Below, one piece after another: positions 39-22,497 of a stretch of DNA of 24,000 nt. A program made the translations under genes and the position numbers. Numbering within the stretch: the stretch's first letter is position 1; each line of letters opens with the position of its first letter. A model generated the notes under the pieces. The model was not told the DNA's origin. It made no database searches and saw only the letters and a list, made by a program, of their open reading frames with translations. The DNA is from Lentisphaeraceae bacterium (lineage in GTDB: Bacteria; Verrucomicrobiota; Lentisphaeria; Lentisphaerales; Lentisphaeraceae), in contig JAJPOQ010000077.1 of NCBI GenBank assembly GCA_021232515.1, forward strand, positions 3,732 to 27,731, written 5' to 3'.

Positions 39-1616
39 TTATTTTAATTCATTGTAGGCTAGACCCAAGCTAGCACGGTAGTCAGCGATAATACGAAAAT
101 ATTCAGCAATTATGTCTACGCGCTTTGCTGCAGCTGTTGCAGTTTTCTGCTCTCTAAGGTTGACTCTTAAAAGGTCACTTTGTCCTTCGCTTAACTTTAA
201 ACGTTCTACTTTTTCTATCTCATTTGCTAAAGCTACATTTTCAGAAACTTGAGAAAGTCGTAGCCATATTTGTTTGAGTGCAGATGTGGTATCTTTAACT
301 CGAGCTACAATCTTGTCCTGTGTCATTTTTTTCTCTTGAACTAATTGGGAAATTTTAGCCTCAATAGTTTTCAATTTACCTTTGGCTTTCCGTCTTTGAA
401 TAGGTACATCTAGTCTTAGAAATATACCAGCTTCGAAGGGTCCTTTAGTATCTGGATCTGTTGCTGTACTACCAACATCTTGAGAAATCTCTCCAGATAA
501 GTAGAGGTTTGGCAAAAGAGTATTCTCTGCAAGTTGTGCTTCAAGACTAAGTTCTTTTCTTTTTAAATCGTAAATTTGTAGCTCTGGCCTTTTTTCTAAA
601 GCTAGTTGTAGGTCTCCAACATGCAGAACTTTTTCAGGATCTTTTGGAATGGGAAGCATGTCAGGTACTCTTTGCGGATCGGGTACAACCGGGTTTCCAT
701 CTGAATCTCTCCAATAAAGAGAAAGAGCTATACCGGATTGTTGCAGGAGTCTTTCTGATTGAGTCACTATCGACTCTCTTTCTACAACTATTTGTCTATT
801 TTCAACAAGAGAAATCTTTGGAACTTCTCCTTCTTTAAGGGATAGTTCTAGAGCTTTATGTCTCTTTTCAGCAAGTTCTAACAGTTGTCTAGCAATATTT
901 AGTTTCTGCCCAGAAGCAACCCATTTCCAGTAAAGCTCTGCAGCTTTACGGGTAACCTCAAGTCTCTTTTCTAAAATCATAGGCTGTGCTTTATCTTGTG
1001 AAATACGAGACTTCCAAAGGTCTACTCTACGCTTATCTATAGATCGGTTTGCTAATAGAGGTAAACTTATACCGACGCTAAACTCTCCTCCACGATCACT
1101 TTGAAGGTCTCCATCCCAAGACGGAAAGTCACCTTGACCAATTTTATAACCACCAAATACTTTTGCTCCAAAGTCAGGAAAAGCTTGTTCGAGTTTTACT
1201 TTTGCCGTTTCGTTTTGGTAATAACCTTCACCATTTACATTGACCTCAGATTTTAAATATAAATCAAAGCCACCCTCAGCTGCTAATCTTTCACCATCTG
1301 CAATCTCGACGGTTTCCATAGCTGCCAAAATAAGTGGGAATTTATCTTCTGTAGACTTTATTAACTCTTGGAAAGTTAATTGGGCTTTTTTTATTTTTGT
1401 ATTTTTCTTTTTAGAAGTATCATCATCAACTTGTGCAATCAAAGCCAGATTCGGAGTATTTTTAACGGTGGCTTCTTTTATTTGCAGTCTGTTTACAGCA
1501 TCGTAATGATCCAGTTCTATTTTAGAAGAAGCGAATTTTGAATCATGATTAATACAGCTTGTAAATACAGATAAAACTAATAAGGAAACAGGTAATGCAC
1601 GGTGAAACTTCTTCAT
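39..1616 (-). CDS. TolC-family outer-membrane efflux/secretion channel, probable lipoprotein
   Basis: 525 aa ORF. N-terminal signal peptide ends in a lipobox-like FTSC. Long helical, coiled-coil-rich repeat architecture typical of outer membrane factor proteins. Its start overlaps the stop of the upstream HlyD gene by 4 nt (1613-1616), so it is the last gene of a three-gene operon. Confidence 0.85.
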   Translation of the reverse strand: MKKFHRALPVSLLVLSVFTSCINHDSKFASSKIELDHYDAVNRLQIKEATVKNTPNLALIAQVDDDTSKKKNTKIKKAQLTFQELIKSTEDKFPLILAAMETVEIADGERLAAEGGFDLYLKSEVNVNGEGYYQNETAKVKLEQAFPDFGAKVFGGYKIGQGDFPSWDGDLQSDRGGEFSVGISLPLLANRSIDKRRVDLWKSRISQDKAQPMILEKRLEVTRKAAELYWKWVASGQKLNIARQLLELAEKRHKALELSLKEGEVPKISLVENRQIVVERESIVTQSERLLQQSGIALSLYWRDSDGNPVVPDPQRVPDMLPIPKDPEKVLHVGDLQLALEKRPELQIYDLKRKELSLEAQLAENTLLPNLYLSGEISQDVGSTATDPDTKGPFEAGIFLRLDVPIQRRKAKGKLKTIEAKISQLVQEKKMTQDKIVARVKDTTSALKQIWLRLSQVSENVALANEIEKVERLKLSEGQSDLLRVNLREQKTATAAAKRVDIIAEYFRIIADYRASLGLAYNELK

Positions 1617-2968
1617 TTTTTAGAGCTCTCTTTACTCGACTTACCTAATTTATTTGAAGAAGATGACTTATCACTCGGAGTAGCGTTGTTATTCGTTATT
1701 GGAAAGGCATTTAGTTGTCGCCATATTTCGTAAGCAAGACTAACTGTATTTAATTGAATTTGTCCCGACGCTCTAACACCCTGCCTTAAAAACGGCTGCT
1801 CTGGCCATGGCTCTTCATCTGGATCTGGGCTAATCAATACACGCACATATCCATCAGCACGTGCTTGTGTATCAGTACGATAGACAATTCCACCAAAAGT
1901 TCCCATCGCAACCGATGCCCAACCGCCTATCTGAATTGCTGGCCAACCCTCAAATTGTACACGAGACTTTCGTCCTTGACTAATAAGAGGTGCATCAATA
2001 CCACGAACCCAAAATTCTAGAATAAAAGTGTCTGTCTCTGGAACTATATGCATAAGGCTTTGTCCACGAGAAATAACATCGCTTGCAACACCATCAATAC
2101 TCAATATTGTACCATCGTTAGGCGCAACTATTGTTTGTGTAGACTGACGTTGAAGTTTACTTTCGGCTTCTGTGAGGCTTTTTCTTACCTTCTGTAGATT
2201 TTGTGCTGATTTTTCTCTATCCGCCCGCAACTTGTTAATCTTGGCCATTTTCTCAGCTCCGATTTTTTTAACATCAGATGCTTTCGCCAATTCTTGATTA
2301 AGTGCCTCATCTACCTTAGCCTCGCTTGCCTTAACTTTAGATTTAGCAAGCTTATATTCTCCCTCTGCTTTTTGAACATTTAAAGTTGAGGTCGCACCTC
2401 CTTTAAGAAGCCTTTCTTTTCGACGATAGTCTTGTTCTTTTTGCTCTAATGTTGCCTTAAGGCCAGATAAAATCGCACGTTCAGCTCTGACTTTCTCAAC
2501 AGCAACTTTCAGCTGAGATGTAGCAGCTTTAATGGAAAATTGACGCTCTTCTTGTAGTTGAATGAGTTGATCATCTAAGGACTCTAGTGTGCTGTGAGCA
2601 GCCTCAAGCTCTTTCCTAACAAACCCTAACTGTTGAGCGAGACGAAGAGCGTAGTCTTTGTCCAAATCTTCCATCTCTGCCAGTGTATCACCTTTCTTGA
2701 CTACGTCACCTTCTTGAACATAAAGTTTAACTATACGACCACTGACAGGCGCAGGTATGATTCTAGTTCGTTCAAGTGGATTAAGTGCCGTAAGATGGCC
2801 TGTGGCAGATATGTTCTGTTGCCATGGAATTATAACTAAAAGAACAGGAACCGCAATGAGACTTATCAAAAGCGAAAAGCCTAAAAAGCGGCCAACACGC
2901 AGTCGACCAATTAGCTGATATGCTGGTAGATCTAATGGTAGGAGTTGATGTTTTTTTGAGCTAGACAT
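1613..2968 (-). CDS. HlyD-family membrane fusion (periplasmic adaptor) protein
   Basis: 451 aa. One N-terminal TM helix (FLGFSLLISLIAVPVLLVIIPW). Lipoyl-like motif (PAPVSGRIVKLYVQEGDVVKKGDTLAEM). A very long K/E/A/Q-rich coiled-coil hairpin. C-terminal beta-barrel segment (VAPNDGTILSI...). Ser/Lys-rich C-terminal tail. Lies 4 nt downstream of the ABC gene. Confidence 0.9.
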   Translation of the reverse strand: MSSSKKHQLLPLDLPAYQLIGRLRVGRFLGFSLLISLIAVPVLLVIIPWQQNISATGHLTALNPLERTRIIPAPVSGRIVKLYVQEGDVVKKGDTLAEMEDLDKDYALRLAQQLGFVRKELEAAHSTLESLDDQLIQLQEERQFSIKAATSQLKVAVEKVRAERAILSGLKATLEQKEQDYRRKERLLKGGATSTLNVQKAEGEYKLAKSKVKASEAKVDEALNQELAKASDVKKIGAEKMAKINKLRADREKSAQNLQKVRKSLTEAESKLQRQSTQTIVAPNDGTILSIDGVASDVISRGQSLMHIVPETDTFILEFWVRGIDAPLISQGRKSRVQFEGWPAIQIGGWASVAMGTFGGIVYRTDTQARADGYVRVLISPDPDEEPWPEQPFLRQGVRASGQIQLNTVSLAYEIWRQLNAFPITNNNATPSDKSSSSNKLGKSSKESSKK

Positions 2969-2972
2969 GAGT

Positions 2973-4736
2973 TTATGATTCCTCTTCTAAGTTATACCCA
3001 GAGGCGGTTTGTTGATTTGTCTTTGAGCTATCAGTGTTACTCAGTTCTAGGACTTCATTACAACGTTCTAGAACCTCCGGAAGGTCAGATGCAATAACTA
3101 AAGTCCATGGATTATCTTTTTTAAATAAATTATCAAAAATGGAGTTCCTAACATGAGGTAAGGAGTGATCAAATAGGGCGTCAACGGCGAGTACCGAAGG
3201 AGAGCCCACAAGTGCACGTGCAAGCATTAAACGTCGTAATTCATCATCCGACAACAAACATCCAAGTGGATGAAGTATAGTATTTAAGCCCTCTGGTAAT
3301 GCATCAATAACCTCAGTTAAACCAGCAAAGCTGATCGCTTTAAGGATGTCTTCATAAGTTACTGAATCTCGATGTAAGCTAATGTTTTCGCTGATTGAGC
3401 CATTTATAACTTCTACTGTTGAAACAATAGCTATCTCACTACGTAATTCATTTAATGCTAAATCACGAGTATCTATTCCTGAAAGCTTTATAAAACCCGA
3501 TGTAGGTTCTCTCAAACCCCATATAATGTCGAGAAGTATGGTCTTATCTATGTCGTTTGAAATATGAAGACCGATTTTTCCTCCAGCTTCAACAGATAAA
3601 TTTATATTTTTAAACGCACGGTCTTTTCGAGATGCCTTCCATGAAAGGTTGTTGAATTGAAGTGATGACCCAGACTCTTGACTAGGGACTACTTGCTCGC
3701 CACCAGTGCGATGTATAGGGGTGTCCAGTAACTGACCAACTTTATAAACTGCAGCCATGAGGTCGTACCAAGTTTCTAGATGTTTACCACTCTTAGAAAT
3801 AGAATATACAATACCAGTAACTATAAGTTCAGCTGCTACAAGTTGTCCTATCGATAAACTTCCTTTCAGTACCAACCAACCTCCCAAACCAAGTAAGATA
3901 ACGCTAGCAACAACGTATAAAAACTGCACACTTATTATCTGTAAAAACAAAACACGAAAATGTGATTTTCTAGTTTTTACCCACTTAGTCGTAAGTTCAT
4001 CAGATTTATCGAAGATCCATTGTTGGGTTTCACCTGTGCGAAATGCCCGTGGTACTCTCGCTATTTCTTCGAGCCAAGCAGCAACTTCATACTTTGCAGA
4101 ACTTTCACTAATGGCAGTACCTTGACCTCGCTTCAGTGGCAAAAACAATATTACTGCAATGACAACAATCAAAAATACGTCGAATATAAGTAGTAAGGGG
4201 TGATATGCTGCCAAAACAGAAAGACCTACAATAATTGCTAGGATAGTACCAAGAGCATCTATAAGGAGTTTGGGAGCAGCCTTTTGTATTGTAAGGATGT
4301 CAAAAAAGCGATTAACTAACTCAGGGCCATGACCTGAATTATATTCTTCTATTTTAACTTTAGGCACGCGTGCAGTTAAATCTGCAGTTAATCTAACAAA
4401 TATACGCTGCTGGAGTAACTCAACCGTCCAAGTTTGAATACAAAATAATGTTGCCGCAATACCCAGTGCTAATGCTAACAAGGATGTTATGATTACTATT
4501 GGTTGGATCAAACCACCAAAAGTTACAGCATTTACAATAGCCTGTACGGCAATCGGACTCGCCAATAGTAACAAACCAATGCTTGTAGCGAAAGCAATTA
4601 TTATGACAATATCCATTTTCTCTGGACGTAGCAAAACTTTCAGTCTTTGAAATGGAGAAAATTTTGAGTCAAAATCAGCTATTGGTGGTATTGAAGAAGA
4701 GTGTTTATCCAGTTTCTTTTTTTTCATATATGCCAA
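2973..4736 (-). CDS. ABC exporter-like protein (6-TM domain plus degenerate nucleotide-binding domain)
   Basis: 587 aa. The N-terminal half has about 6 hydrophobic helices, as in type I ABC exporters. The C-terminal half aligns by eye to an ABC NBD, but Walker A reads HISNDIDKT, the signature reads LSDDE, Walker B reads VLAVDA, and no H-loop His is present. The ORF-track start at 4736 is TTG; an ATG at 4727 (MKKKKLDK...) is an equally plausible start. Confidence 0.85.
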   Translation of the reverse strand: MAYMKKKKLDKHSSSIPPIADFDSKFSPFQRLKVLLRPEKMDIVIIIAFATSIGLLLLASPIAVQAIVNAVTFGGLIQPIVIITSLLALALGIAATLFCIQTWTVELLQQRIFVRLTADLTARVPKVKIEEYNSGHGPELVNRFFDILTIQKAAPKLLIDALGTILAIIVGLSVLAAYHPLLLIFDVFLIVVIAVILFLPLKRGQGTAISESSAKYEVAAWLEEIARVPRAFRTGETQQWIFDKSDELTTKWVKTRKSHFRVLFLQIISVQFLYVVASVILLGLGGWLVLKGSLSIGQLVAAELIVTGIVYSISKSGKHLETWYDLMAAVYKVGQLLDTPIHRTGGEQVVPSQESGSSLQFNNLSWKASRKDRAFKNINLSVEAGGKIGLHISNDIDKTILLDIIWGLREPTSGFIKLSGIDTRDLALNELRSEIAIVSTVEVINGSISENISLHRDSVTYEDILKAISFAGLTEVIDALPEGLNTILHPLGCLLSDDELRRLMLARALVGSPSVLAVDALFDHSLPHVRNSIFDNLFKKDNPWTLVIASDLPEVLERCNEVLELSNTDSSKTNQQTASGYNLEEES

Positions 4737-5185
4737 TATTGGTAATTGTTTATTTTATAAGAAAATTTCGGGTATATGCAGAATGTTTGCTAATCAGAAT
4801 ATGAACAAGCTAGCACTTGTAAGTAGATGCCTAGTTTAATCCAATTCAATAGCTGAATCCAAGTCCATTAAGTAAAATATCAGTTCTTACAATCTAACCT
4901 CTATAAATTATAAAGATGAGTACATTCAATGTGACCTGATACCTTAGCCTCTGAAGCTCTAATTAGTTTCACATACAAACTACTAAGAGTCCTAAAATTT
5001 GTTTATTTTTTAGAAGTTTCCAGAAATGTGATTCAAAGCTCTAGAGTAAAACTAGATACAGTCACTCTTTTTTTAAGTATCCAGATTTGTTAAATTTAAA
5101 ACTCATAACAGTAACTCCAAAGTTAATTTTTACGCATTTCTCAATGATTGCTAAAGATTATGCAATCTTTCTATGTATGCAAGTA

Positions 5186-5203
5186 CGTGTTTTAAAAAAC
5201 ACG
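5186..5203. repeat. Perfect 8-2-8 palindrome CGTGTTTT-AA-AAAACACG in the long intergenic region
   Basis: Read directly: the reverse complement of CGTGTTTT (5186-5193) is AAAACACG (5196-5203). Function unknown; it could be an operator. Confidence 0.5.
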
Positions 5204-5426
5204 ATATATTTTTCATGCTTATTAATTCATGTCTCTAGTTAAAAGATTCAACAAGACAATCATAAATGTATCAAAAATATTAAGATAAGTGTAATTAGTG
5301 AATCTAAACACAACTAAACATAGTTTTCCAACGGTCAATTAAAGACAATGGACTTACCCACTTTGAAAACGACTCGAATCTATCTGAATAAAAAAATGTC
5401 CTCTTGTACTAGTCGATTAGCAATAG

Positions 5427-5454
5427 TTGATTTTTATTTTTATTGCGATATAAT
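5427..5454 (+). promoter_or_regulatory. Candidate sigma70-type promoter for galM (TTGATT-N16-TATAAT)
   Basis: -35-like TTGATT at 5427-5432 and a perfect -10 TATAAT at 5449-5454 with a 16 nt spacer, about 107 nt upstream of the galM ATG. In sequence this AT-rich, such matches can arise by chance. Confidence 0.25.
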
Positions 5455-5560
5455 TACAAAATAAAATCATTTTAAAATATATATAAATAACTAATTATTA
5501 ATTATTTAAATAAATACAATAGATAGTAAACACACATCAATTTTAAAATTAGACGCAATT

Positions 5561-11966: not shown

Positions 11967-13361
11967 TTATCGTTTAATTAGGGACTTTTCAGTTTGAATA
12001 GGATTGCTGTCATTTAGTTGTTCAAGCTTCTTACTGAGTTCGCTTTTTAGTTTTTCAATGACTTGCTTATACTCTGGGTTATTTATCTGATTACTGAGCT
12101 CATGTGGGTCTTTTTCTAAGAGATAGAACTCGTACTCACTTCGTTTATTTAGTTGATTCACTCGTGATTGGTACTTTTTGTTTTTTCTAGCTAACTCGAC
12201 CCATGATGAGGCTATGTCATTTTTCTTTAAGGATGGATCTTCTTGCATTTTTAAGGCTTGAGACAAAGTGAGGTTTGAAGTCACTTCAGAAGAGTTTGGG
12301 TTATAGATAAGAGTGTATTGCTTGTTGCGTATAGTACGTATAGGGAAGACTCTTTTCTTATTATCAATGATGTTCACGTTTGTGAAAGCACCATAGACAT
12401 ATTCATTTATTTCTTGAGTATCGCCTTTTAAAATAGGTAGAAAGCTTTTGCCATCGAAGTCATTTTCTTTTATTTCGTAACCTGCAACTTCAGCAAGAGT
12501 TGGCGCTATATCGCTAGTTGCTAGAAGCTGATTGACTTGTGAGACTGAAGTTTTTGGCCAATGAGCCACTATGCCGGTATTTAGACCAGTTTTATAGCAT
12601 GTCCATTTTGAAAAAGGCAACTGTGAACCTTGTTCACTACAAACTATAAAGATGGTGTTTTCCCAGAGTTTCATGTTTATCAGTTCGTTTTTCATTCGAC
12701 CAACAAGAGAGTCAAAGTTATTTACTTCAGCATAGTATGAAACGAGAGTTTCTCGCAGTTCTGGAGTATCGATCCAGTAGGGAGGAATGGTCAATTCGTC
12801 AGCTTTAAATTTACTTTTATCACCTGTTGTGAATGGAGCGTGACTGTCATTTGAAGCTATGAATACACAAAATGGCTTATCACTTTTAAGTGATTTTTGG
12901 ATATAGTCTTTGGTGGTTTTTATGTAGAAGTCGTTTTGGTCTACTTTTTTACTTTTGCCTGGAAAGAAATCAAATGGGTAAGCTTTGGTTGGTCCAACAT
13001 GAGACTTGCCAATGAGAGCAACGTTGTAACCTAAAGGATTTAGATAGTGGGGTAAACTTTTGGTAATTGGTTTGGATTTCGAGTGATTTGCTAAAGTCCC
13101 AGTTCTCCATGGAGATCTACCACTGTAAAGTTCTTGACGAAATGGAGCACACATAGCGACTGAGCAAAAAGCGTTATTAAAGATCACGCCATTTTTACCT
13201 ATTTCATCAATGCTTGGAGTTTTAGAGTCTATGCTGCCGAAAATACCCCAATGGTCTTTGTTCATATCATCAGCGAGTAAAAAGACAATATTTGGCTTTT
13301 TAGAGTCATTTGCTAAGCACAACGACAAAGGTAAAAGCATGATTACTATTAAGGTTTTCAT
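11967..13361 (-). CDS. Secreted sulfatase (arylsulfatase A family, Cys-type)
   Basis: 464 aa. Signal peptide, then PNIVFLLADDM metal-binding start. Formylglycine motif C-A-P-F-R followed by LYSGR (MCAPFRQELYSGR). GKSHVG motif. Confidence 0.9.
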   Translation of the reverse strand: MKTLIVIMLLPLSLCLANDSKKPNIVFLLADDMNKDHWGIFGSIDSKTPSIDEIGKNGVIFNNAFCSVAMCAPFRQELYSGRSPWRTGTLANHSKSKPITKSLPHYLNPLGYNVALIGKSHVGPTKAYPFDFFPGKSKKVDQNDFYIKTTKDYIQKSLKSDKPFCVFIASNDSHAPFTTGDKSKFKADELTIPPYWIDTPELRETLVSYYAEVNNFDSLVGRMKNELINMKLWENTIFIVCSEQGSQLPFSKWTCYKTGLNTGIVAHWPKTSVSQVNQLLATSDIAPTLAEVAGYEIKENDFDGKSFLPILKGDTQEINEYVYGAFTNVNIIDNKKRVFPIRTIRNKQYTLIYNPNSSEVTSNLTLSQALKMQEDPSLKKNDIASSWVELARKNKKYQSRVNQLNKRSEYEFYLLEKDPHELSNQINNPEYKQVIEKLKSELSKKLEQLNDSNPIQTEKSLIKR

Positions 13362-13440
13362 CGTAAAAGTCCGTTCATTTTATCTATGTTATAAAATATG
13401 TTTATATAATACATTACGCTGTCAGAATTCAATTTTATCA

Positions 13441-13480
13441 GATTTCAGCAAAAAAACTAAAAAAAATGTTTTTTGAAATC
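13441..13480. promoter_or_regulatory. Inverted repeat GATTTC-(AGC)-A7 ... T6-GAAATC centred in the divergent sulfatase / GH-like promoter region
   Basis: GATTTC at 13441-13446 and GAAATC at 13475-13480 are exact reverse complements, each flanked inward by an A or T run. As a result each divergent gene sees TGAAATC in the same orientation. Confidence 0.3.
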
Positions 13481-13540
13481 ACACCGAGTAGTAGCTGCGA
13501 CATTTAATCATTGCTTAACCAAATTATAAGGAGTGAAGCA

Positions 13541-16339
13541 ATGGTTATGAATAGATTCAGGAATTTATTATTTCTGTTAGTTAGTCTTTTATTCTCAGTG
13601 AATACTATGGCTGGAATAAACACCTTTTCCGTGTCGGGAAAAAATGTTTACTTTAATAATAAAGAATTCAAAGTTATAGGTTTGAGATGTTCGAACGCAC
13701 TCATAAGTGAAGACGAAACTCAAGAGCTAATTGACAACTTGGATGTTTTTAAGTCTTACGGTGTAAATACCATCAGTGTTTTTGTCATGGGTTCGCGTTT
13801 TGGCGATATAAAAGGTTATAATCCAGATAGTTCTTTAAATATGACTTATGCAAATCGTCTTGGTCGTATCATCGAAGAAGCTGATAAAAGAGGCATAATC
13901 ATACTGGTTGGTTGTCTTTATTGGAGTACTTCAACAGCTAAAGCTGACTTAGGTCACTGGAAGCAAGAAGACGCCGATAAAGCTGTTTATAATACGGTTA
14001 AGTGGTTAAAGGATAACAACTATACAAACGTATTTGTTGATCCTGACAACGAAGGTATGGCAGCAAAAGCAACGGGTTGGGACATCGGCTCAATGATTGA
14101 AGCAGGTCATGAAGCTAATCCAAACATGGTGCTTGGTTATAATAAGTCTGGAACTCCTCCGGCAAATGCAGATATACTTCTTCACCACAGTCCAAAAGAT
14201 GGCAGCCGCCCTTGGATTCAAAGTGAAGGTTCTCCAGGCAGTACTCCGGGTGGATACTGGGGAAGTTACAGTAAGGAAGGTGGTTACTACAACTACATTC
14301 GTATAGGTCGCTATAACGACAATATGAAGAATGCTCAGATCAATCAAACTGATAGTGATGTGAAAAACCAAAACGGTTACATGCTTGCTTCAACGTATAT
14401 CCAGTGTGCTCCTGTAGAAGGTATTGGCGGTCCATTTATGAATCCGGGTGGTGAAGCAAATAATCCAGATATAAATGACAGTGTTAAAACTCTTCAAAGT
14501 GACATCGGTATTCTTTGGTGGCTAAAACACGTTAAAAATAAATACGGTGCGTGGAATCCGGAATCCGCTCCTGTAAGTGCGACATTTAAAGAAGTAAACG
14601 GTTTAGTTTCTATGGAAGCTGAGAGTGCAACTCAACAAGAGTGGACTCCGAGTAACGACAGCAGCACAAGTGGTGGTATAAAAATGATCAACCCTGGTGC
14701 TTCGACAAATGACATGACCTTTAAGATAAAGTTTGCCAAAACTGGTAAGTACTATGTTTGGTTCCGTCATGCTAAACCTAGTTATGCTGATGGAGACAAC
14801 AACGACTGTATCGTGACTTTTGATGGCAAGGAATTAAAAGTTGGAAATGGAAACTCAGTTATAGGTATGGGAACTCATCAGAAAAGTTTAAAGTTTGAGT
14901 CTCGTCCAAAGTCACACCACTCAGAAGATCGTAGTTATCATCCATTTTTTGAAGTAAATTCAGCAGGAGAATATGACTTTGTCGTTAACAGTAGATCTGA
15001 CTTAAGTGCAGAGTATATCGTTGATAAGATAGTCTTGATTCATGCTGATCGTGGTGGAAATGACAGTAGTCCAGCAGTTCTTGGTGGCTTAACTAGTCAT
15101 GGTCCTGACGAAACAAGAAACACTCCAGCTCCACCAACAAATGAAGCTCCTACAATTAACTTTGTAACTCCGGCAAATAATTCAATTATCGAAGAAGGTG
15201 CAAGTCTTTACATAAAGGCGAACGCTTCAGATTCAGACGGAAGCATAAACAACGTTAAGCTTTATGTAAATGGCGCTTTTATAAGAAAGGAAAATAACGC
15301 TCCATATGAGTGGGGCTCACCAAGTCAAAGTGACGCTTTCCTTAAGAATATGGCAGCTGGTAGTTACACTCTAAAAGTTGAAGCGGAAGACAACCAAGGT
15401 AAGAAGTCTAGCAAGACTATTTCAGTTACTGTAAAAGCTGAGAGTTCATTTCCTGGAAGTCTTATTTCTGACCAAGTTGGCGATGCAAATGCAGACGCAA
15501 GCTACGATGACGGTGTTTTTACACTAAGTGCTGCGGGAAGCGACATCTGGAATAACAGCGACGAATTCGGTTTTGTACACCAAAACTGGAGTGGCGACTT
15601 AACAATTGTTGCTAAAGTTCAGTCTTTAACTGAAACTCATGAGTGGTCGAAGGCCGGTATCATGATCAGAGAGTCTTTAGGAGAAAGTTCAGCTCATGTT
15701 ATGCTTGTTGTGACTCCTGAGAATGGTGTTTCATTTCAGTATAGAAGTGTTGCAGGCTACAAGTCTTACAGTAAAAAAGTACAGGGAGTGACAGCTCCTC
15801 AGTGGCTTAAGCTTGTGAGAACAGGGAATACTTTCCGTTCATATTTTTCTACGGATGGTGGAAGCTGGATGCCGTTAGGAAAAACTGAAGTAGATATGTT
15901 TGAAGACGTTAAAACTGGTCTTGTTTTGACTTCTCATGATTCATCTAAAGCGGCGACTGCGACATTCAGCGGATTGGAGCTTAAAGATCCACAAGATGAA
16001 CTTATCATTGAGAAATATGTACTCGTTAATGCTGACACAGATGCAGATGTTAAGGAAGTATACTACAATGATACAATAGATCTAAATGAGTATGGCAACA
16101 TCAGTCTAAAAGTGACTTTAAACGACACACCAGGAAGCGTCGTTTTCAAAGTAAATGGTTCACAAGTTCAGATTGAAAACAATGCAGGCTATTTTATCCA
16201 AGGTAACACTGGATCAGATGTCGATGCATGGTTGATAGGTGCTGGAACTCATACTGTAGAAACTATGCCAAAGTCAGAAAAAAATGGTGCTGGTTTAAGC
16301 GGTGAAACACTGAAGTTAAAACTAAATATAGTTAAGTAA
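13541..16339 (+). CDS. Secreted multidomain glycan-active protein (clan GH-A-like TIM barrel + CBM-like + Ig-like + ConA/DUF1349-like + C-terminal beta-sandwich)
   Basis: The ORF track starts at TTG 13511. I prefer ATG 13541, preceded by AAGGAG (13528-13533) with a 7 nt spacer and giving signal peptide MVMNRFRNLLFLLVSLLFSVNTMAG. The N-terminal ~340 aa have alternating beta/alpha character, with VFVDPDNEG (candidate NE acid/base) and IQSEGS (candidate nucleophile). Next come a GLVSMEAES-type CBM-like domain, an Ig-like domain (VKLYVNGAFIRKENNAPYEWG...GSYTLKVEAEDNQG), a ConA-like domain (DIWNNSDEFGFVHQNW...WSKAGIMIRES...WLKLVRTGNTFRSYFSTDGGSW) and a final beta-sandwich. Confidence 0.85.
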   Translation: MVMNRFRNLLFLLVSLLFSVNTMAGINTFSVSGKNVYFNNKEFKVIGLRCSNALISEDETQELIDNLDVFKSYGVNTISVFVMGSRFGDIKGYNPDSSLNMTYANRLGRIIEEADKRGIIILVGCLYWSTSTAKADLGHWKQEDADKAVYNTVKWLKDNNYTNVFVDPDNEGMAAKATGWDIGSMIEAGHEANPNMVLGYNKSGTPPANADILLHHSPKDGSRPWIQSEGSPGSTPGGYWGSYSKEGGYYNYIRIGRYNDNMKNAQINQTDSDVKNQNGYMLASTYIQCAPVEGIGGPFMNPGGEANNPDINDSVKTLQSDIGILWWLKHVKNKYGAWNPESAPVSATFKEVNGLVSMEAESATQQEWTPSNDSSTSGGIKMINPGASTNDMTFKIKFAKTGKYYVWFRHAKPSYADGDNNDCIVTFDGKELKVGNGNSVIGMGTHQKSLKFESRPKSHHSEDRSYHPFFEVNSAGEYDFVVNSRSDLSAEYIVDKIVLIHADRGGNDSSPAVLGGLTSHGPDETRNTPAPPTNEAPTINFVTPANNSIIEEGASLYIKANASDSDGSINNVKLYVNGAFIRKENNAPYEWGSPSQSDAFLKNMAAGSYTLKVEAEDNQGKKSSKTISVTVKAESSFPGSLISDQVGDANADASYDDGVFTLSAAGSDIWNNSDEFGFVHQNWSGDLTIVAKVQSLTETHEWSKAGIMIRESLGESSAHVMLVVTPENGVSFQYRSVAGYKSYSKKVQGVTAPQWLKLVRTGNTFRSYFSTDGGSWMPLGKTEVDMFEDVKTGLVLTSHDSSKAATATFSGLELKDPQDELIIEKYVLVNADTDADVKEVYYNDTIDLNEYGNISLKVTLNDTPGSVVFKVNGSQVQIENNAGYFIQGNTGSDVDAWLIGAGTHTVETMPKSEKNGAGLSGETLKLKLNIVK

Positions 16340-16345
16340 ATTCTT

Positions 16346-16375
16346 GATTACCCAGTTTTAAGAAACTGGGTAATC
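16346..16375 (+). terminator. Strong stem-loop (13-bp perfect stem) directly downstream of the GH-like gene
   Basis: GATTACCCAGTTT (16346-16358), loop TAAG, AAACTGGGTAATC (16363-16375), followed by the T-rich run TCTTGTTGTTGTG. It begins 7 nt after the stop codon and ends 24 nt before the sigma-factor ATG. Confidence 0.65.
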
Positions 16376-16399
16376 TCTTGTTGTTGTGTGGGAGAGTAT

Positions 16400-16939
16400 A
16401 TGTCGGATAAAATCGACTTAACAGAATTTAAAAATATCGTCTTGGAGTATGAACATAGCGTTCGTACTTCAATTCGTGTTATGGGGATTCGCGAAGGTTA
16501 TGTCGATGATTTGGCGCAAGAAACATTTATCTTAGCTTATAAAAAGTTTCATACTTTTGATCAAAGTAGAAGTTTGCGCGCCTGGTTATTGAGTCTAGCT
16601 AAGAATCTAGTTTTAAACGAAAGAAGAAAAGTAAAAAGACGACAGGCACTGCTGCATGAGAAATACTCTTTGTTGGTTTCAGATAACTTAGAAGCTAATC
16701 TTGATGGCCTTGATTTTGGATATGATAAAAATGTGCTGGATACTTGTTTAGATAAACTTCCAGAGAACCATCGAAAACTAGTGACACTGCGGTATTTCAA
16801 AGAAAAGAATTCTAAAGAAATAGCCCAAGTGATGAACAAAGAGGCTAGTAACATTCGCCATATGCTTAGGCGTATACTAGAGAGTTTGAAGTTGTGTGTT
16901 TTTCGACAATCAGATGAACTGAGGGGAAACAGTTTATGA
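16400..16939 (+). CDS. ECF-type RNA polymerase sigma factor (sigma-70 family, regions 2 and 4)
   Basis: The ORF track starts at GTG 16388. ATG 16400 (MSDKIDL...) is preceded by GGGAGAG. Region 2 signature: DDLAQETFILAYKKFHTFDQSRSLRAWLLSLAKNLVLNERRK. Region 4 HTH: LRYFKEKNSKEIAQVMNKEASNIRHMLRR. Its stop overlaps the downstream start (ATGA). Confidence 0.9.
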   Translation: MSDKIDLTEFKNIVLEYEHSVRTSIRVMGIREGYVDDLAQETFILAYKKFHTFDQSRSLRAWLLSLAKNLVLNERRKVKRRQALLHEKYSLLVSDNLEANLDGLDFGYDKNVLDTCLDKLPENHRKLVTLRYFKEKNSKEIAQVMNKEASNIRHMLRRILESLKLCVFRQSDELRGNSL

Positions 16940-18114
16940 GTCCAGATTCGGAAAAGGTTTTTGACCGTATCATTGAAGGCAAATTGCGAGATGAGGATTT
17001 ACTCTATCTCGAAAATCTTGAAAAGAGTCATCCTGAAGAATTTCAGCAGATGATGCAGTTGGTAGCTTTTGAAGAGTCTATATCTATAAACCTGAAAGAA
17101 GAGCGTTCACCTGAGTTATTTTCAGACTTGGTGATTGATGAGATAAAGCGTGAAAAGCTTCATCAAACTCAGAGTTTCGCCAATAAAGTAGTTAAAAAAA
17201 TAGACGCAAACCCGAGAAGCTCTCGTCGAAGAGTGACTCGTAAAGTAAAGAAGAAGTCTAGTTCATTTCCATTCCTTTTGGCAGCTATAGTTTTGATTGG
17301 TTTAGCAGTCGGAGCTTTCTTTGTCTTAGAGAGTAAATCACCTGAAGTTTACATAACACAAGGCCAGTTTAGTAATGGCTCTCAAACTTACTCTAGTGGC
17401 CAAATCTTACCTCAAAACTTAAAGTTTAAAGCAGAGAGTGATGTTGTCGTGAGCCTGTTTGATGGTACCAAAATTGGTATAGATAAAGCTTCAGAATTGA
17501 ATTTTGATGTAGCCAATAAAAACATATATCTTCATAAAGGTAAACTAACTGCAAGTGTTCAGAAACAAGCAGATGGCGCCCTTAAGTTTAATACACCTTA
17601 TGCGATAGCAGAAATACTTGGAACTGAGTTTTCTCTAGAAACCGAAAATGAAAAATCGTGGCTAGATCTTACAGAAGGTTCGATTCGTTACTCTTCAAAA
17701 AATAGCGATAAGTCTATACTCATGAAATCTGGTGAGGAAGCCTGTGCTATAGAAAAGGGAGATCTTGCTTTAGCTAAAGAAGAGTTTGTAAAGTTACTCA
17801 CTCTAGTGGATGCAAAAACGGGTAAAGACTTAAAAATCCTTGAGGACCATAGTACTATCAGTTTGAGTGAGTACCGTCGGTCTTTTTCGATAAAGGCTTA
17901 TGCTCAAAAACGCGAAAAAATAGCTTTTTATATCAATGGCAAAAAAGTTGATAAAGAAGAAGCAAACCCTCCATACATCCTAACAGGAAATGCCCCAGGG
18001 TCTGAGGCTGTTTACCCTTGGAAAGTAGGTCCCGGAAATTATGAAATAGTCCTCAAAGTTCTTTCTGGAAAATCCAATTATATGAAGAAGTTCTCTGTAA
18101 AAATTGTGAAATAA
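16936..18114 (+). CDS. FecR-family transmembrane anti-sigma factor with C-terminal Ig/CBM-like domain
   Basis: 392 aa. Cytoplasmic N-terminal helical domain, basic stretch (RSSRRRVTRKVKKK), single TM helix (FPFLLAAIVLIGLAVGAFFVL). FecR-type beta domain (LFDGTKIGIDKASELNF...LHKGKLTASV...FNTPYAIAEILGTEFSLE). Then a ~105 aa C-terminal domain similar to domains of the adjacent secreted protein. 4-nt start/stop overlap with the sigma gene. Confidence 0.85.
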   Translation: MSPDSEKVFDRIIEGKLRDEDLLYLENLEKSHPEEFQQMMQLVAFEESISINLKEERSPELFSDLVIDEIKREKLHQTQSFANKVVKKIDANPRSSRRRVTRKVKKKSSSFPFLLAAIVLIGLAVGAFFVLESKSPEVYITQGQFSNGSQTYSSGQILPQNLKFKAESDVVVSLFDGTKIGIDKASELNFDVANKNIYLHKGKLTASVQKQADGALKFNTPYAIAEILGTEFSLETENEKSWLDLTEGSIRYSSKNSDKSILMKSGEEACAIEKGDLALAKEEFVKLLTLVDAKTGKDLKILEDHSTISLSEYRRSFSIKAYAQKREKIAFYINGKKVDKEEANPPYILTGNAPGSEAVYPWKVGPGNYEIVLKVLSGKSNYMKKFSVKIVK

Positions 18115-18172
18115 TTTCTTTTTGGCGTCACACCTACACCAACTCACAACAATAATTATACAAAGATAATTT

Positions 18173-18352
18173 ATGTATAGGCTGAATATGCAGCAAGAAA
18201 TAATCAGAGTTAAAAGGCCAGACTTTTCATCATTGAATCAAGTTAAAAAGGCCAAGGTAGTAAAAGATTTCTTTTATCCAAAACCTAAAGAAAAAAAGAA
18301 ACTTAGTCAGACTTTAGTGGATGGCGTAGTTTACATCGATTTAAAGAATTAA
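18173..18352 (+). CDS. Unannotated 59-codon ORF (hypothetical), convergent with and overlapping the fic stop
   Basis: Translated by hand: MYRLNMQQEIIRVKRPDFSSLNQVKKAKVVKDFFYPKPKEKKKLSQTLVDGVVYIDLKN. It falls just below the size cutoff of the ORF track and fills an otherwise empty 234 bp gap. It has no convincing RBS and no recognised family. Confidence 0.2.
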   Translation: MYRLNMQQEIIRVKRPDFSSLNQVKKAKVVKDFFYPKPKEKKKLSQTLVDGVVYIDLKN

Positions 18353-19413
18353 GAACGCTGACGCTGTATCTCCCTAACTTCGTCAACGATATTTAAAGTC
18401 TTTTGCCATTGTTGATAAATGAATGCTTCAAACTTTTTTATATCACCAGTCATTTCTAATGTATTGTTCTCATCTTTTAATCGAAAGTTTTTAATGAGGT
18501 CTAAATATTCAAATCTAGATTGGCTATCAATTGTGATTGGTGGAAAGCCTTGTTGAATAACTTTTAAGTTTGCTAGTAGTCTTGCAAGTCTGCCATTTCC
18601 ATCAAAAAATGGGTGTATGGAGGTAAAAGATAGCATGACCCATGTATAGATCTTTACGGCTTCAGTTGATGTTTCTGGAGCGAATAAAGAGTTATAGGTT
18701 TCTAGCCACGACTTCATCAATAGAGGAATTTTTTTTGGAGGTGGATAAAGTATGTACTCTTTACCCCAGTAAGCACCATTTTCTTTCCTTTTCCAGGCAC
18801 CTACAGGGTTTTCTATATCAAATGGTGGGTTAATGATAGTTGTTTTATGAAGGTTTAATATATCTTCTTCCATTAGGTCTTTATTATGAGCAATCTGGTA
18901 TATGAGTTTGATTGCATTTGCGTGCCCACGTATTTCATCATGTTCACGAAGACTTTTGCCGGAAATGGTTAAGCCTTCCTTTAAGATGAAAGATGTTTCG
19001 CCTAGAGTAAGAGTATTTCCTTCTATTGATGTTGAATCGTGAGTCCATTCATCACGAATTCTCTGCTTGAGTATATCTTTTAAGTCATCATCTAAGTTAT
19101 CAAGGAATAAACCAACCTTAGGACTTTTCTTTAATGAGTGGTAAAGAGCTTGGCGGATTTGTTTGAGAAGTTCTCGTGAGTTCTCAATTTTGAGTGAATG
19201 CTTTAGTTGGTTTAGCTGTTGGTCACTTAAAGAAAAACTTAGTTGTTTATCTAATTTTCCGGTTTTAGTAAGCTCAAAAACTTTATGGGACTTTATTAAA
19301 ACATTGACTGCTGTATTTACAGCAGCTTGTTGTTTTCCATTCTTTTTTATGGCCTCAAAGAGTTCTTGAGTAATTTTTAAGCTAAACCTTTTCATATAAT
19401 TACTATAAATCAT
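18349..19413 (-). CDS. Fic-family protein (class II architecture: N-terminal inhibitory helix plus Fic core)
   Basis: 354 aa. Canonical Fic motif HPFFDGNGRLAR (HPFx[D/E]GNGRxxR). Upstream S-T-S-I-E-G matches the autoinhibitory [S/T]xxxE[G/N] motif. An alternative start is at Met7 (19395). Confidence 0.9.
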   Translation of the reverse strand: MIYSNYMKRFSLKITQELFEAIKKNGKQQAAVNTAVNVLIKSHKVFELTKTGKLDKQLSFSLSDQQLNQLKHSLKIENSRELLKQIRQALYHSLKKSPKVGLFLDNLDDDLKDILKQRIRDEWTHDSTSIEGNTLTLGETSFILKEGLTISGKSLREHDEIRGHANAIKLIYQIAHNKDLMEEDILNLHKTTIINPPFDIENPVGAWKRKENGAYWGKEYILYPPPKKIPLLMKSWLETYNSLFAPETSTEAVKIYTWVMLSFTSIHPFFDGNGRLARLLANLKVIQQGFPPITIDSQSRFEYLDLIKNFRLKDENNTLEMTGDIKKFEAFIYQQWQKTLNIVDEVREIQRQRS

Positions 19414-19467
19414 TCTTTTAGTTAATAAAAGAATGATTTATCATTCTTTTTTGATTAAAAAGAATGG
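19405..19467 (-). promoter_or_regulatory. Four alternately complementary 10-mers plus 8-codon uORF in the fic leader (alternatively a weak terminator of the upstream sulfatase)
   Basis: Plus strand: TCATTCTTTT (19410-19419), AAAAGAATGA (19427-19436), TCATTCTTTT (19441-19450), AAAAGAATGG (19458-19467). A perfect 15-bp inverted repeat (19405-19419 / 19427-19441) includes the fic ATG. On the mRNA strand the duplicated AAAAGAATGAT initiates ATG ATA AAT CAT TCT TTT ATT AAC TAA, which ends 4 nt before the fic ATG. Confidence 0.4.
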
Positions 19468-19488
19468 ATCGCAAGATAAATTTGAAAT

Positions 19489-20919
19489 CTACTGAGCTTT
19501 GATTGGGCCTTTGTGATTGATCTTTTCTGCGCCAGTTGCTTTACCAGGCATTTCTCTGTGTGGATTCCTCTCACCTTTCTTGGCTTTTGGTGAACCACGG
19601 TCGAGAGATGGGCTTTCTGGAACATTGTCACCAGTCTGTTCAGTCCAATCGGCGAGTTGCTGACGCATCTTCTTGAGCATTTCTTTATACTCTGGATTAT
19701 TCACAACGTTATTCAATTGGTGAAAGTCTTTACCGACATGGTAGAGCTCTTCTTCTGGACACGGGTTTCTAAATACGTTGCTTTGTGCAGCATTTAGTTT
19801 TCCATCCTTATAAGCTTCAGCCAGTTCTTGGTAACTTGCTTCCACACACCAAAGTCTGCGGTCTGGAAAATTGTTTTTAATGTAGAGGAAGTCGCCCATT
19901 CTAACCATGCGTTCATGAGCTTGATTGACATGCCAATTGTGTTCAGCAAAGACGACTTCTCTAACTGTCGCTTTAGGATCTTTGAGAATAGGCGTAAAAC
20001 TTACTCCTTGGATTCTTTCGTCTGCTTTTAGACCAGCAAGTTCTACTATAGTACTAGCAACATCTATAGAGCTGATAAGACTATCTGTAACGAGTCCTTT
20101 AGTGATCATTTTAGGGTAATGGACGATAAAAGGAGTTTTTATACCGCTGTCATATAGTCTTGTTTTGGCACGTGTAAATGGGCGACCGTTATCAGACATA
20201 ACGATGATAAATGTATTCTCAAAAACTTCTTGTTTCTTAAGTTCTTTAACGACTTCACCGATGTAGTAGTCAAAACGGCTTATTTCATGGTAGTAGCCAG
20301 TAAACTCTTTGCGAATTTCAGGTCCATCAACCATGTAAGGAGGGATGATCACATCCTTTGGATCATAGATGGGTGCTTTGTCATTTATCTCAAACTTCTT
20401 ATGAGCATCTGTAGAGGCAAACCACATGAAGAATGGTTTATCTTTTGGTCTTTTTTCTAGAATAGGAACCCAGTCTTCTTCTTTTCCAGGGCCTTTGCCA
20501 TTTGAGATCTTGTTGAAAGAATTTTTTATATTGCCAATATGAGTTTTACCAGAAATAACAGAGTAGTAACCACTCTCTTTAAGCAACTTAGGAAACTTTA
20601 CTTGTTCTACTGGTAGGTTTGTATGGAGTTCTGCAGCACCTGTATTGTGAGGATAACGGCCGGAGATGATACTACAACGACTTGGGCTACAGCTACTAAT
20701 TGTTAAGTAAGCGTTGGTAAACTTCATACCGTCATTTGATAACTGGTCGATATGTGGAGTCTTGATTACGGGATGACCGTAGGCACCAAGGTCTTCAAAG
20801 CCTAGATCATCTGCTATAAAGAAGACAAAGTTAGGTTTTTCAGCAGAAAATCCGACAGTGGATAAGAGCATAGTAAATATAATAATAAGTTTCATGAACA
20901 CGCCTAAGTTTAGTTTCAT
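19489..20919 (-). CDS. Secreted sulfatase (Cys-type)
   Basis: 476 aa. Signal peptide. PNFVFFIADDLGFEDLG start. Formylglycine motif CSPSR followed by IISGRYPHNTG. GKTHIG motif. The true start may be the second Met (20895, MKLIIIFTMLL...). Confidence 0.9.
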   Translation of the reverse strand: MKLNLGVFMKLIIIFTMLLSTVGFSAEKPNFVFFIADDLGFEDLGAYGHPVIKTPHIDQLSNDGMKFTNAYLTISSCSPSRCSIISGRYPHNTGAAELHTNLPVEQVKFPKLLKESGYYSVISGKTHIGNIKNSFNKISNGKGPGKEEDWVPILEKRPKDKPFFMWFASTDAHKKFEINDKAPIYDPKDVIIPPYMVDGPEIRKEFTGYYHEISRFDYYIGEVVKELKKQEVFENTFIIVMSDNGRPFTRAKTRLYDSGIKTPFIVHYPKMITKGLVTDSLISSIDVASTIVELAGLKADERIQGVSFTPILKDPKATVREVVFAEHNWHVNQAHERMVRMGDFLYIKNNFPDRRLWCVEASYQELAEAYKDGKLNAAQSNVFRNPCPEEELYHVGKDFHQLNNVVNNPEYKEMLKKMRQQLADWTEQTGDNVPESPSLDRGSPKAKKGERNPHREMPGKATGAEKINHKGPIKAQ

Positions 20920-21276: not shown

Positions 21277-22497
21277 TTATGATAAGGCTTGTTTGAGTGA
21301 CACTATTGGTAATTCAAAGCGAGTAGCAAATGCTTCTGCTTGATCTTTTGAAAGTCTTTCGCCATTTGCTGCCAGCATAGTTATGCAAAGTGCAGATGGA
21401 TAAAGTGAAGCTTTATCTGTTAGGCCAATTGCTCCTTCAAGAACATTTCTTGGACGGTCGATTTCACTACTAAGTATCTGAACTGCAGCAACGTTACCGG
21501 GACAAATCCAGTCGCCAACACTGTATTCAACATTGTGAAACATCTCTATAGACTTAAGTAGTGCTTTGGCTGAGAAGTCGTTCTCTTCAACTTCACGGTC
21601 TCTGACTTGAACTAGGTAGCGTCTGCCTTCTTCATCAAGCTGACTGTTGACTACAGGAGCCGGTATAGCAAGTCTCTCTGCGACGTGGTTTTCAACTGCA
21701 AGCAAACAGCCGGAACGAGCCATGCCCATAGCAAATGTTAGGACTTCTTCAGTAAGCTTTTCAGTTGCAACGACTATAGCAACTTCAGTTCTTTCTGGTG
21801 ATTCGTCAACTATAAGAGCAGCCGAACCTTTTTTGAGAGATGCTAAAGCCCACTCTTCTTGAGAGTCTACTTTTTCAGCACGAACTTCGTCTGGAATATT
21901 TAAAGAAAGGACACCTGATTCATCTTGTATATGTCTTGAGTTGAAGTCGACTTCGATATTCACTTTATCACCTTTTGTAATTTTCCCTAAGTGCGTGCGA
22001 TTTAGAGTTTCTGGAATAAGAGAAACAGAAAATGCTTCGCTGTTTCTATCTGTAATTGTTAGGCTAACGCCATCGACTGAAACACAGCCTCTTATTGGCA
22101 TGAGGTCACGAAAGTTTTTAGGTAGTGAGAACCAGATCTTTACTTGGTCTGAACCTTCGACACTGGTCAGTTCAACCAGGTCTGCAATGAAGTCTACATG
22201 ACCAAGGATGTTGTGACCACCGTTGTATTCGCCATGTTTTAGCGGAAGATCGACGTGAACCTTATCGCCCGAAACGATTGTCGGTAAAGTGGTTCTTTTG
22301 AGAGTTTCAGGCCAAACGTCAAAACTTACTTTTTGATCATCAAATTCGGTAACAGTCAGGCAGACTCCGTTTATACCAACTGAATCGCCAGTTTTAACGA
22401 GTGAGCAGACGTCACTAGCAACTGTAAGTTTGTAACCGTTTTGGTCGCCTTCATTGGCAACAACTATTCCTTCTCTGGTGATGATACCGCTATACAT
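21277..22497 (-). CDS. ribE: Riboflavin synthase (alpha chain) fused to a degenerate DHBP-synthase (RibB)-like domain
   Basis: Residues 1-~200: two lumazine-binding repeats (MYSGIITREG..., GDSVGINGVCLTVTEF, GGHNILGHVD, GCVSVDGVSLTIT, LIPETLNRTHLG). Residues ~215-406 align by eye to RibB (LKKGSAALIVDESPERTEVAIVVATEKLTEEVLTFAMGMARSGCLLAV; PGNVAAV; ALCITMLAANGERL; PIVSLKQAL) but lack the conserved acidic and His catalytic residues. Confidence 0.85.
   Translation of the reverse strand: MYSGIITREGIVVANEGDQNGYKLTVASDVCSLVKTGDSVGINGVCLTVTEFDDQKVSFDVWPETLKRTTLPTIVSGDKVHVDLPLKHGEYNGGHNILGHVDFIADLVELTSVEGSDQVKIWFSLPKNFRDLMPIRGCVSVDGVSLTITDRNSEAFSVSLIPETLNRTHLGKITKGDKVNIEVDFNSRHIQDESGVLSLNIPDEVRAEKVDSQEEWALASLKKGSAALIVDESPERTEVAIVVATEKLTEEVLTFAMGMARSGCLLAVENHVAERLAIPAPVVNSQLDEEGRRYLVQVRDREVEENDFSAKALLKSIEMFHNVEYSVGDWICPGNVAAVQILSSEIDRPRNVLEGAIGLTDKASLYPSALCITMLAANGERLSKDQAEAFATRFELPIVSLKQALS

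Follow-up and report, generated by a model that had tools for sequence, protein, structure and literature searches.

A tripartite export cassette of a Lentisphaeraceae bacterium whose single ABC-type subunit has six noncanonical ATP-site motifs

Introduction

What do the nucleotide-binding domains (NBDs) of ABC exporters do beyond hydrolysis, and by what means other than ATP might an ABC-type transmembrane domain (TMD) be driven or gated? The defining feature of ABC exporters is ATP-driven dimerization of their NBDs, with each composite site assembled from the Walker A and B motifs, Q-loop, and H-loop of one subunit and the signature motif of the other, and in the systems known to us degenerate sites always coexist with one working site. 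Both questions are raised by a conserved, selected gene cassette whose sole NBD forms no canonical site. It lies in a 24,000-nucleotide stretch of a Lentisphaeraceae bacterium contig (JAJPOQ010000077.1, positions 3,732 to 27,731; here, the window) and encodes an ABC-like half-transporter, a HlyD-type periplasmic adaptor, and a TolC-like outer membrane factor (OMF). Taking motif, structural, and comparative evidence together, we are inclined to regard the cassette as a functional tripartite conduit in which a homodimeric pseudo-ATPase has kept its NBD as a structural or gating domain and its TMD may be driven or gated otherwise than by ATP.

ATP-site motifs of the ABC-like subunit

Open reading frame (ORF) calling across the window, together with Pfam searches, bore out the arrangement given in a preliminary description of this DNA: three co-directional genes on the minus strand, with a 4-nt gap between the ABC-like and HlyD-like genes and a 4-nt overlap between the HlyD-like and OMF genes.

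2973 to 4736, minus strand: ABC-like half-transporter gene, 587 amino acids (aa) from TTG at 4736; Pfam PF00664 and PF00005
1613 to 2968, minus strand: HlyD-type periplasmic adaptor gene, 451 aa; Pfam HlyD_3 and Biotin_lipoyl_2, NCBIfam
39 to 1616, minus strand: TolC-like outer membrane factor gene, 525 aa; PF02321 (OEP), 76.8 bits

Profile alignment found all six ATP-site motifs of the ABC-like protein (hereafter, the query) to be noncanonical: the A-loop, Walker A, Q-loop, signature, catalytic Glu, and H-loop. Motif registers were checked by phmmer alignment to ABCB1 and by family alignments, and the coordinates were checked by translation.

3633 to 3647, minus strand: A-loop region LSWKA, in which Ala368 replaces the adenine-stacking aromatic (family alignment)
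3540 to 3563, minus strand: degenerate Walker A, ISNDIDKT, for canonical GxxGxGK[ST] (ABCB1 and family alignments)
3417 to 3422, minus strand: Q-loop position, S439-T440, no Gln (alignments)
3240 to 3254, minus strand: degenerate signature, LSDDE, for canonical LSGGQ (alignments)
3177 to 3194, minus strand: Walker B, VLAVD, then Ala520 for the catalytic Glu (alignments)
3084 to 3089, minus strand: H-loop position, S550-D551, no His (alignments)

Five of these states had been read in the preliminary description, and the alignments upheld each of them. Walker A, set against GNSGAGKS, retains the Lys and Thr, while other residues stand at the three Gly positions, Asp at two of these; S439/T440 stand at the Q-loop position without a Gln; the signature reads LSDDE; Walker B reads VLAVDA, with Ala520 in place of the Glu; and D551 stands where the H-loop His would be. 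The A-loop loss, LSWKA against FAY in canonical relatives, was absent from that list. Both Pfam profiles, PF00005 and PF00664, matched the protein, and misregistration of the motifs was excluded by three independent alignments (ABCB1 by phmmer and two family alignments).

Because the P-loop glycines are replaced, the signature carries Asp-Asp-Glu, and the catalytic base, His, Gln, and aromatic are all missing, the alignments argue that the two sites of a homodimer would be unable to bind or hydrolyze ATP. The earlier suggestion that a homodimer would carry two dead sites thus stands, the single ABC subunit being degenerate at every catalytic motif. The former ATP pocket is lined by carboxylates, five per composite site (D395 and D397 in cis; D497, D498, and E499 in trans), and one may speculate that such a pocket keeps the NBDs apart or is bridged by cations.

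An intact gene under purifying selection

The ABC-like ORF is intact and identical across four independent assemblies. Whether its degenerate motifs are maintained or decaying, a question left by the preliminary description, was addressed through orthologs. The closest relative (P0002, at locus L007) is 76% identical and has the same LSDDE signature and VDA, a Ser/Thr Q-loop, and a degenerate P-loop, GSSDIEKS; synonymous sites between it and the query are saturated. Over the NBD, pN was 0.21 and pS 0.66, and dN/dS was at most ~0.15. The NBD is under purifying selection, and it evolves ~2.4 times faster than the TMD at nonsynonymous sites (dN, 0.24 versus 0.10). The HlyD-like protein is 62 to 66% identical to its relatives, and the OMF is 54% identical to its ortholog at locus L004. 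The cassette is intact and conserved, and the ABC-like gene is not a pseudogene. Recent pseudogenization or an alignment artifact, for which the low Pfam score of the NBD might be cited, is exceedingly improbable, since the dead motifs are common to the relative across saturated dS, pN is well below pS, and the NBD is modeled with confidence; the intact ORF in four assemblies and the agreement of three alignments on the registers also stand against it.

Translation start and fold

At 100% identity, the ABC-like protein matches MCM8536287.1, which comes from a Lentisphaeraceae metagenome-assembled genome (MAG) and whose NCBI product has 547 aa and begins at M41. This start is probably too short, because residues are conserved in the family from P28/R31 onward and other gene callers choose an ATG at 4727 (584 aa), which we take as the most likely start; beginning at M41 would remove a conserved N-terminal segment, PxxRLxxLLRPE, that aligns family-wide (window positions 4616 to 4736).

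Pfam profiles matched the protein as PF00664, ABC_membrane (36.9 bits; cutoff, 28), and PF00005, ABC_tran (40.6 bits; cutoff, 25), the latter compared with 96.5 bits for a canonical family member. A six-helix ABC_membrane TMD is followed by an ABC_tran NBD fold, which is the architecture of a type IV exporter half-transporter.

3717 to 4661, minus strand: TMD, six-helix type IV ABC exporter fold, aa 26 to 340 (AlphaFold2 [AF2] helices, Foldseek)
3039 to 3665, minus strand: NBD fold, aa 358 to 566 (PF00005, 40.6 bits; AF2)

The AF2 model had a pLDDT of 89.1 and a pTM of 0.84, with most of the NBD above 94. Its nearest Foldseek matches were the PCAT1 core and HlyB (TM-score, 0.83 to 0.86; ~20% identity), and MsbA was matched in the same TM-score range; as modeled, the fold is that of a type IV exporter of the HlyB/PCAT1 kind. 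The preliminary description had allowed for either a type I secretion or a MacAB-like machine. The first part holds, in that the genes form an ABC/HlyD/TolC cassette like that of a type I secretion system (T1SS); the MacAB-like option was mistaken, the protein having six transmembrane (TM) helices and a C-terminal NBD.

A large family with graded erosion of the ATP site

Homologs at 40 to 76% identity scored more than 390 bits, compared with at most ~145 bits for solved ABC exporters, and a genome scan placed relatives in at least 580 species representatives. Their hosts include Planctomycetota, Myxococcota (Cystobacter fuscus), Acidobacteriota, and Verrucomicrobiota, as well as methanotrophs (Methylotuvimicrobium buryatense 5G) and Kuenenia. 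None of the curated NCBIfam models reached its cutoff with the ABC-like protein, and a search of the published full-text literature turned up no account of the family and none of a bacterial ABC exporter that is doubly degenerate. A motif census of the 260 best-scoring sequences gave these counts.

Walker A, full motif canonical: 168/260
Walker A Lys present: 207/260
Catalytic Glu present: 57/260 (instead Gly in 84, Asp in 52, Ala in 20, and Ser in 20)
H-loop His present: 39/260
Q-loop Gln present: 14 to 25/260
A-loop Tyr/Phe present: 91/260

All six motifs were lost in 32 sequences (12%), the query among these, and all six were kept in only 4; a basic residue occupied Walker A position 7 in 232 of the 260. 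Because the ATP-site motifs are ancestral to the entire ABC superfamily, the canonical states are retentions and the others are losses. On a neighbor-joining tree built without an outgroup, losses fell at many scattered points, at least 54 changes being counted in Walker A and at least 31 at the catalytic Glu, numbers that tree error inflates. Judged by these sequences, the query is the extreme end of a large uncharacterized family in which erosion is found in every intermediate degree. An acidic residue at signature position 4 was associated with Walker A loss (odds ratio, 8; p = 2e-6) in counts not corrected for phylogeny, and it is therefore not taken to prove that the motifs switched in a coordinated way.

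Conservation is higher in the TMD than in the NBD, which is unusual among ABC proteins, and the ratio of NBD to TMD identity, 0.82 for canonical members, drops to 0.68 for the most degenerate ones. Invariant TMD columns include Q109, R111, R115, R123, N142, R143, Q151, K152, Y178-H179-P180, S212, K215, R256, H259, G297-Q298, E321, Y324, D325, and K332; in the NBD, N451, R507, and P513 are the only ones. The P-loop is hypervariable in the subclade of the query (ISNDIDKT, GSSDIEKS, SNCESERS, GASGLERS, and GLFGRSGS). A sister clade from Saltatorellus ferox and other Planctomycetota (P0026, P0030, P0031, P0033, P0037, P0040, P0062, and P0063) retains, at NBD identities down to 45%, G[LI]DGASRL as a new P-loop along with LSDD[DE] as its signature, which suggests that the site has been selected for a new, non-nucleotide role and has not merely drifted.

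Most family members carry ~170 extra N-terminal residues that the subclade of the query lacks. In the long relatives this domain had no significant Pfam or PDB sequence match; it was confidently modeled (P0009-P0120, residues 1 to ~170), with two conserved Trp and no conserved Cys. Foldseek alignments of the long form to full-length HlyB/PCAT1 extended over 706 to 729 columns, versus ~550 for the cores, and the models point to a C39-like domain as in HlyB.

Conserved context and the single NBD

When all ORFs of 84 related loci were clustered, the ABC-like gene was present in 84, the HlyD-like gene in 83, and the OMF gene in 67, many of the 84 contigs being truncated. The HlyD-like adaptor has an N-terminal TM helix closely followed by an invariant PWxQ, and its C-terminal domain is very conserved, with weak PDB matches of the adaptor to EmrA, HlyD, and LipC. 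The family alignment revealed no conserved charged residue in the TM helix of the kind that forms an ExbD/MotB-like proton site. At its C terminus (window positions 1613 to 1700, minus strand), the adaptor has a low-complexity tail rich in Ser and Lys (…NNNATPSDKSSSSNKLGKSSKESSKK), to which the conserved portion of the family alignment does not extend. The OMF, which had been called a TolC-like lipoprotein, is TolC-like by its OEP match of 76.8 bits and is a probable lipoprotein; its signal peptide ends in FTSC, only an approximate lipobox, and a lipobox-like Cys is found in 27 of 66 relatives.

An NBD hidden Markov model run on the six-frame translation counted one NBD in the window, and a second ABC gene past the window edge is ruled out, as alaS comes next; the operon holds no second ABC gene, as had been said of it. 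No recurrent second ABC exporter was found beside the cassette among the 84 related loci. The preliminary description had named an intact partner gene elsewhere as a counter-reading; no such partner adjoins the cassette in these loci, and the query's own signature is degenerate as well. Soluble tandem-NBD proteins of the ABC-F type are encoded within 10 kb of the cassette in 3 of the 84 loci (L006, 14817 to 16718; L018, 5550 to 7223 and 7419 to 9353; L046, 14050 to 15723), against a rough chance estimate of ~1, and were judged coincidental as partners.

The sole other recurrent neighbor is a divergent LysR regulator that matches the NhaR equivalog NF008284 (232 bits; cutoff, 219). It adjoins the cassette in 13 to 15 of the 71 loci with upstream sequence and lies within 10 kb in 21; loci with the regulator upstream are L012, L016, L017, L023, L026, L030, L031, L033, L034, L040, L068, L075, and L085. 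None stands next to the cassette in the window. This linkage hints that the cassette may be under Na+, alkaline, or osmotic regulation. SulP anion transporter genes adjoin the cassette in three to five loci of unrelated genomes (L005, 6278 to 7870; L006, 6038 to 7633; L010, 2 to 1714; also L062 and L068), an arrangement that may be fortuitous or may point to a functional link. L006 has a carbonic anhydrase gene along with its SulP gene. Among the 84 loci, no substrate-like gene recurred near the cassette.

Comparison with known systems

The Escherichia coli hemolysin exporter HlyB-HlyD-TolC (PDB 7sgr/8dck) has the same layout of ABC protein, HlyD-type adaptor, and TolC-type channel, and HlyB has the same type IV exporter fold (TM-score of 0.86 to 8dck_A), though at only ~20% identity. 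HlyB is a canonical ATPase, whereas the ATP-site motifs of the query are all degenerate; moreover, the OMF of the query is encoded in the operon, and no gene for an RTX-type substrate lies nearby. Structural alignment pairs the N-terminal domain of the longer family members with the C39-like domain of HlyB; the query has no such domain, nor any N-terminal C39 peptidase or C39-like domain of the kind found in T1SS ABC groups 1 and 2, whereas the longer relatives have one by fold. As in a T1SS, the ABC protein, membrane fusion protein, and OMF are encoded together, an arrangement kept in related loci, but the T1SS models were missed: TIGR03375 (143.6 bits; cutoff, 693.1), TIGR01846 (124.3; 725.55), TIGR01842 (114; 510.15), and TIGR01843 (79.8; 208.65), with the models for LssB (143.6 versus 693 bits) and HlyD (79.8 versus 208.65 bits) missed by a wide margin.

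PCAT1 (PDB 4ry2 and 8vox) was the best sequence match for the TMD alone (E = 5e-7) and the best Foldseek match for the whole model, and it has ..RF.D and GQL motifs in common with the query; the query differs in having no peptidase domain, a dead NBD, and a Gram-negative tripartite context. MacAB-TolC is likewise a tripartite ABC-driven efflux system, but MacB has a type VII fold with an N-terminal NBD, four TM helices, and a large periplasmic domain, from which the query differs. The SecA_DEAD/HlyD module of Planctomycetes (PMC4452313) was considered and is a different system.

The exporters TM287/288, TmrAB, BmrCD, and TAP1/2 have a similar fold, with one site that has lost the catalytic Glu, H-loop His, and canonical signature, but they are encoded by two adjacent genes and always keep one consensus site. 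The query is encoded by a single gene with both the Walker and signature sides degenerate, so that no consensus site is possible; its operon has no pair of half-transporter genes, and LSDDE stands where the degenerate subunit of such a heterodimer would have a canonical signature. The heterodimeric exporters share the kind of erosion but not this single-gene, both-faces pattern. In CFTR and SUR, ABC architecture has been reused for gating, with degenerate sites that bind ATP without hydrolyzing it (PMC7756269); these are eukaryotic proteins that keep one active site, and the query lacks the binding site as well. Family members with an intact Walker A but without the catalytic residues may resemble them. 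SbmA/BacA (SLiPT) uses the type IV TMD fold without ATP hydrolysis, SbmA working as a proton-driven secondary transporter (PMC13316013); it has lost the NBD, is an importer, and has no adaptor or OMF, whereas the query keeps a folded, selected NBD, and its proton coupling is hypothetical.

Proposed mechanism and alternatives

We propose that the ABC-fold inner membrane protein, HlyD adaptor, and TolC-like channel would form an envelope-spanning export conduit and that the ABC-like protein would act as a homodimer, as do its canonical relatives and HlyB. The Asp-Asp-Glu of the signature would occupy the place where the gamma-phosphate would otherwise lie, and the NBD, no longer a motor, would serve the coupling helices in a structural or gating role. 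The system probably runs independently of ATP. In the most speculative step, the conserved TMD would be moved or gated by a non-ATP source, most plausibly a proton or ion gradient, and, by analogy with SbmA, coupling might proceed through three family-specific titratable residues near the periplasmic leaflet, which occupy invariant or conserved columns.

4200 to 4202, minus strand: H179
4179 to 4181, minus strand: D186
3828 to 3830, minus strand: E303

These residues are 88 to 98% conserved in the family, PCAT1 having N/I/N-type residues there, and AF2 places them one to two turns of helix away from where TM3/4 and TM6 end on the periplasmic side. The source of movement might be a proton or ion gradient or else passive gating, and we offer both tentatively. 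A more ambitious version of this proposal, that an exporter family was converted in place to an ATP-independent engine or gate, ion- or proton-coupled or cation-gated through the poly-acidic site, with all stages extant, seems to us possible but doubtful.

Several observations weigh against the proposed pseudo-ATPase conduit. K398, T399, and the Walker B Asp519 are ATP-site residues that are still present, and the loss of ATP binding is read from sequence alone. H179, D186, and E303 also occur in fully canonical members and are no proof of a switch in energy source; they may instead contact HlyD, at the invariant PWxQ, or the substrate. No gene for an RTX, C-terminal-signal, or GG-leader substrate was found near the cassette in the window. 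The search for a second NBD covered the window and the contig downstream, and the motif counts, as given above, draw on best-scoring sequences and on a tree without an outgroup.

Three functional options had been raised for the locus: an exporter energized differently, a scaffold or plug, and one that needs a partner. The last is now the least likely of these, and the other two are computationally inseparable. A partner-dependent pump, in which an intact half-transporter or NBD from another part of the genome joins the query and hydrolyzes ATP, would have precedent in T1SS with two ABC proteins, such as Vibrio RtxB/RtxE, and in the heterodimeric exporters with one degenerate site, which are common (PMC7756269), and the DNA of this organism that was searched was the cassette contig. 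Known heterodimer partners are, however, encoded side by side, and the 84 loci have no recurrent second exporter; fully canonical members of the same family are also singly encoded. Because the Walker face and the signature face of the query are both degenerate, no partner would restore a canonical site at either composite position, whereas in a real asymmetric heterodimer the consensus site is completed by a canonical signature from the degenerate subunit. It is therefore unlikely that the query belongs to an ordinary asymmetric heterodimer, and we give a partner-dependent pump of any kind a low probability.

Similarly improbable in our estimation is a nontransporting scaffold or plug that anchors HlyD and the OMF or closes the channel, with no translocation through the TMD and any substrate coming from the periplasm. 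The lack of an energy-coupling motif agrees with such a role, as do the extreme conservation of the HlyD C-terminal domain and the retention of the NBD mainly at coupling-helix contact positions (the invariant N451, R507, and P513), but no part of the protein is as well conserved as the TMD, whose dozens of invariant polar residues on the cytoplasmic extensions and TM6 exceed what a passive anchor would need, and canonical members with the same TMD still look like working pumps. Less probable still is a residual or noncanonical ATPase that binds nucleotide through K398 and T399 and hydrolyzes it slowly by means of other residues. The Walker A Lys/Thr and Walker B Asp are present, the basic residue at Walker A position 7 is widespread, and the canonical Walker A of most family members suggests that ATP binding matters for those. 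In the query, by contrast, the P-loop has none of its three Gly and has Asp in place of two, the signature has Asp-Asp-Glu, no A-loop aromatic, Q-loop Gln, catalytic Glu, or H-loop His is left, and the P-loop of the subclade is hypervariable, as for a ligand-free site.

Significance

The locus is a real and unusually complete case of a pseudo-ATPase with an evolutionary series at hand. If conversion in place occurred within the family, a full ATPase, a stage of ATP binding only, and a nucleotide-blind NBD would all be extant, and the family would supply natural intermediates between primary ABC transporters and secondary, SbmA-like transporters. The cultivable hosts Saltatorellus ferox, Cystobacter fuscus, and Methylotuvimicrobium buryatense 5G, together with the intermediates, amount to a natural mutational series for biochemistry and cryo-electron microscopy. 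Present annotation is misleading, in that genes of the family are labeled “ABC transporter ATP-binding protein” or “Toxin RTX-I translocation ATP-binding protein.” The second label is attached to the S. ferox protein QDV09041.1 (P0261), the ATP site of which is fully degenerate.

Genomic neighborhood

Upstream, the cassette is separated from a divergent gene by a long noncoding region.

4737 to 5560, no strand assigned: divergent intergenic region between the cassette and an aldose-epimerase gene, 824 bp, AT-rich, 26.5% GC

The preliminary description had put this stretch at ~820 bp and noncoding, and it contained no ORF longer than 51 aa, no Rfam match, no trace of a lost N-terminal or C39-like domain, and no small substrate ORF or RNA; it is presumed to be the promoter and regulatory region of the cassette. 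At the other end, the OMF gene stops 38 bp from the window edge, and on the longer contig alaS and a hydrolase gene come downstream.

The rest of the window holds sulfatase genes, an extracytoplasmic function (ECF) sigma/FecR pair, a Fic gene, riboflavin genes, and NrdR. The sulfatase genes lie at 11967 to 13361 and 19489 to 20919, the ECF sigma factor and FecR-like anti-sigma factor at 16388 to 18114, adjoined by a 942-aa Big_7/DUF1349 protein at 13511 to 16339, and the Fic-domain gene at 18349 to 19413; the gene set from 11967 to 20919 is typical for polysaccharide-degrading PVC bacteria and is unrelated to the cassette. At 21277 to 22497 on the minus strand, a single 406-aa ORF fuses two lumazine-binding domains (riboflavin synthase alpha chain) with 3,4-dihydroxy-2-butanone 4-phosphate (DHBP) synthase (RibB), a departure from the usual RibBA arrangement.

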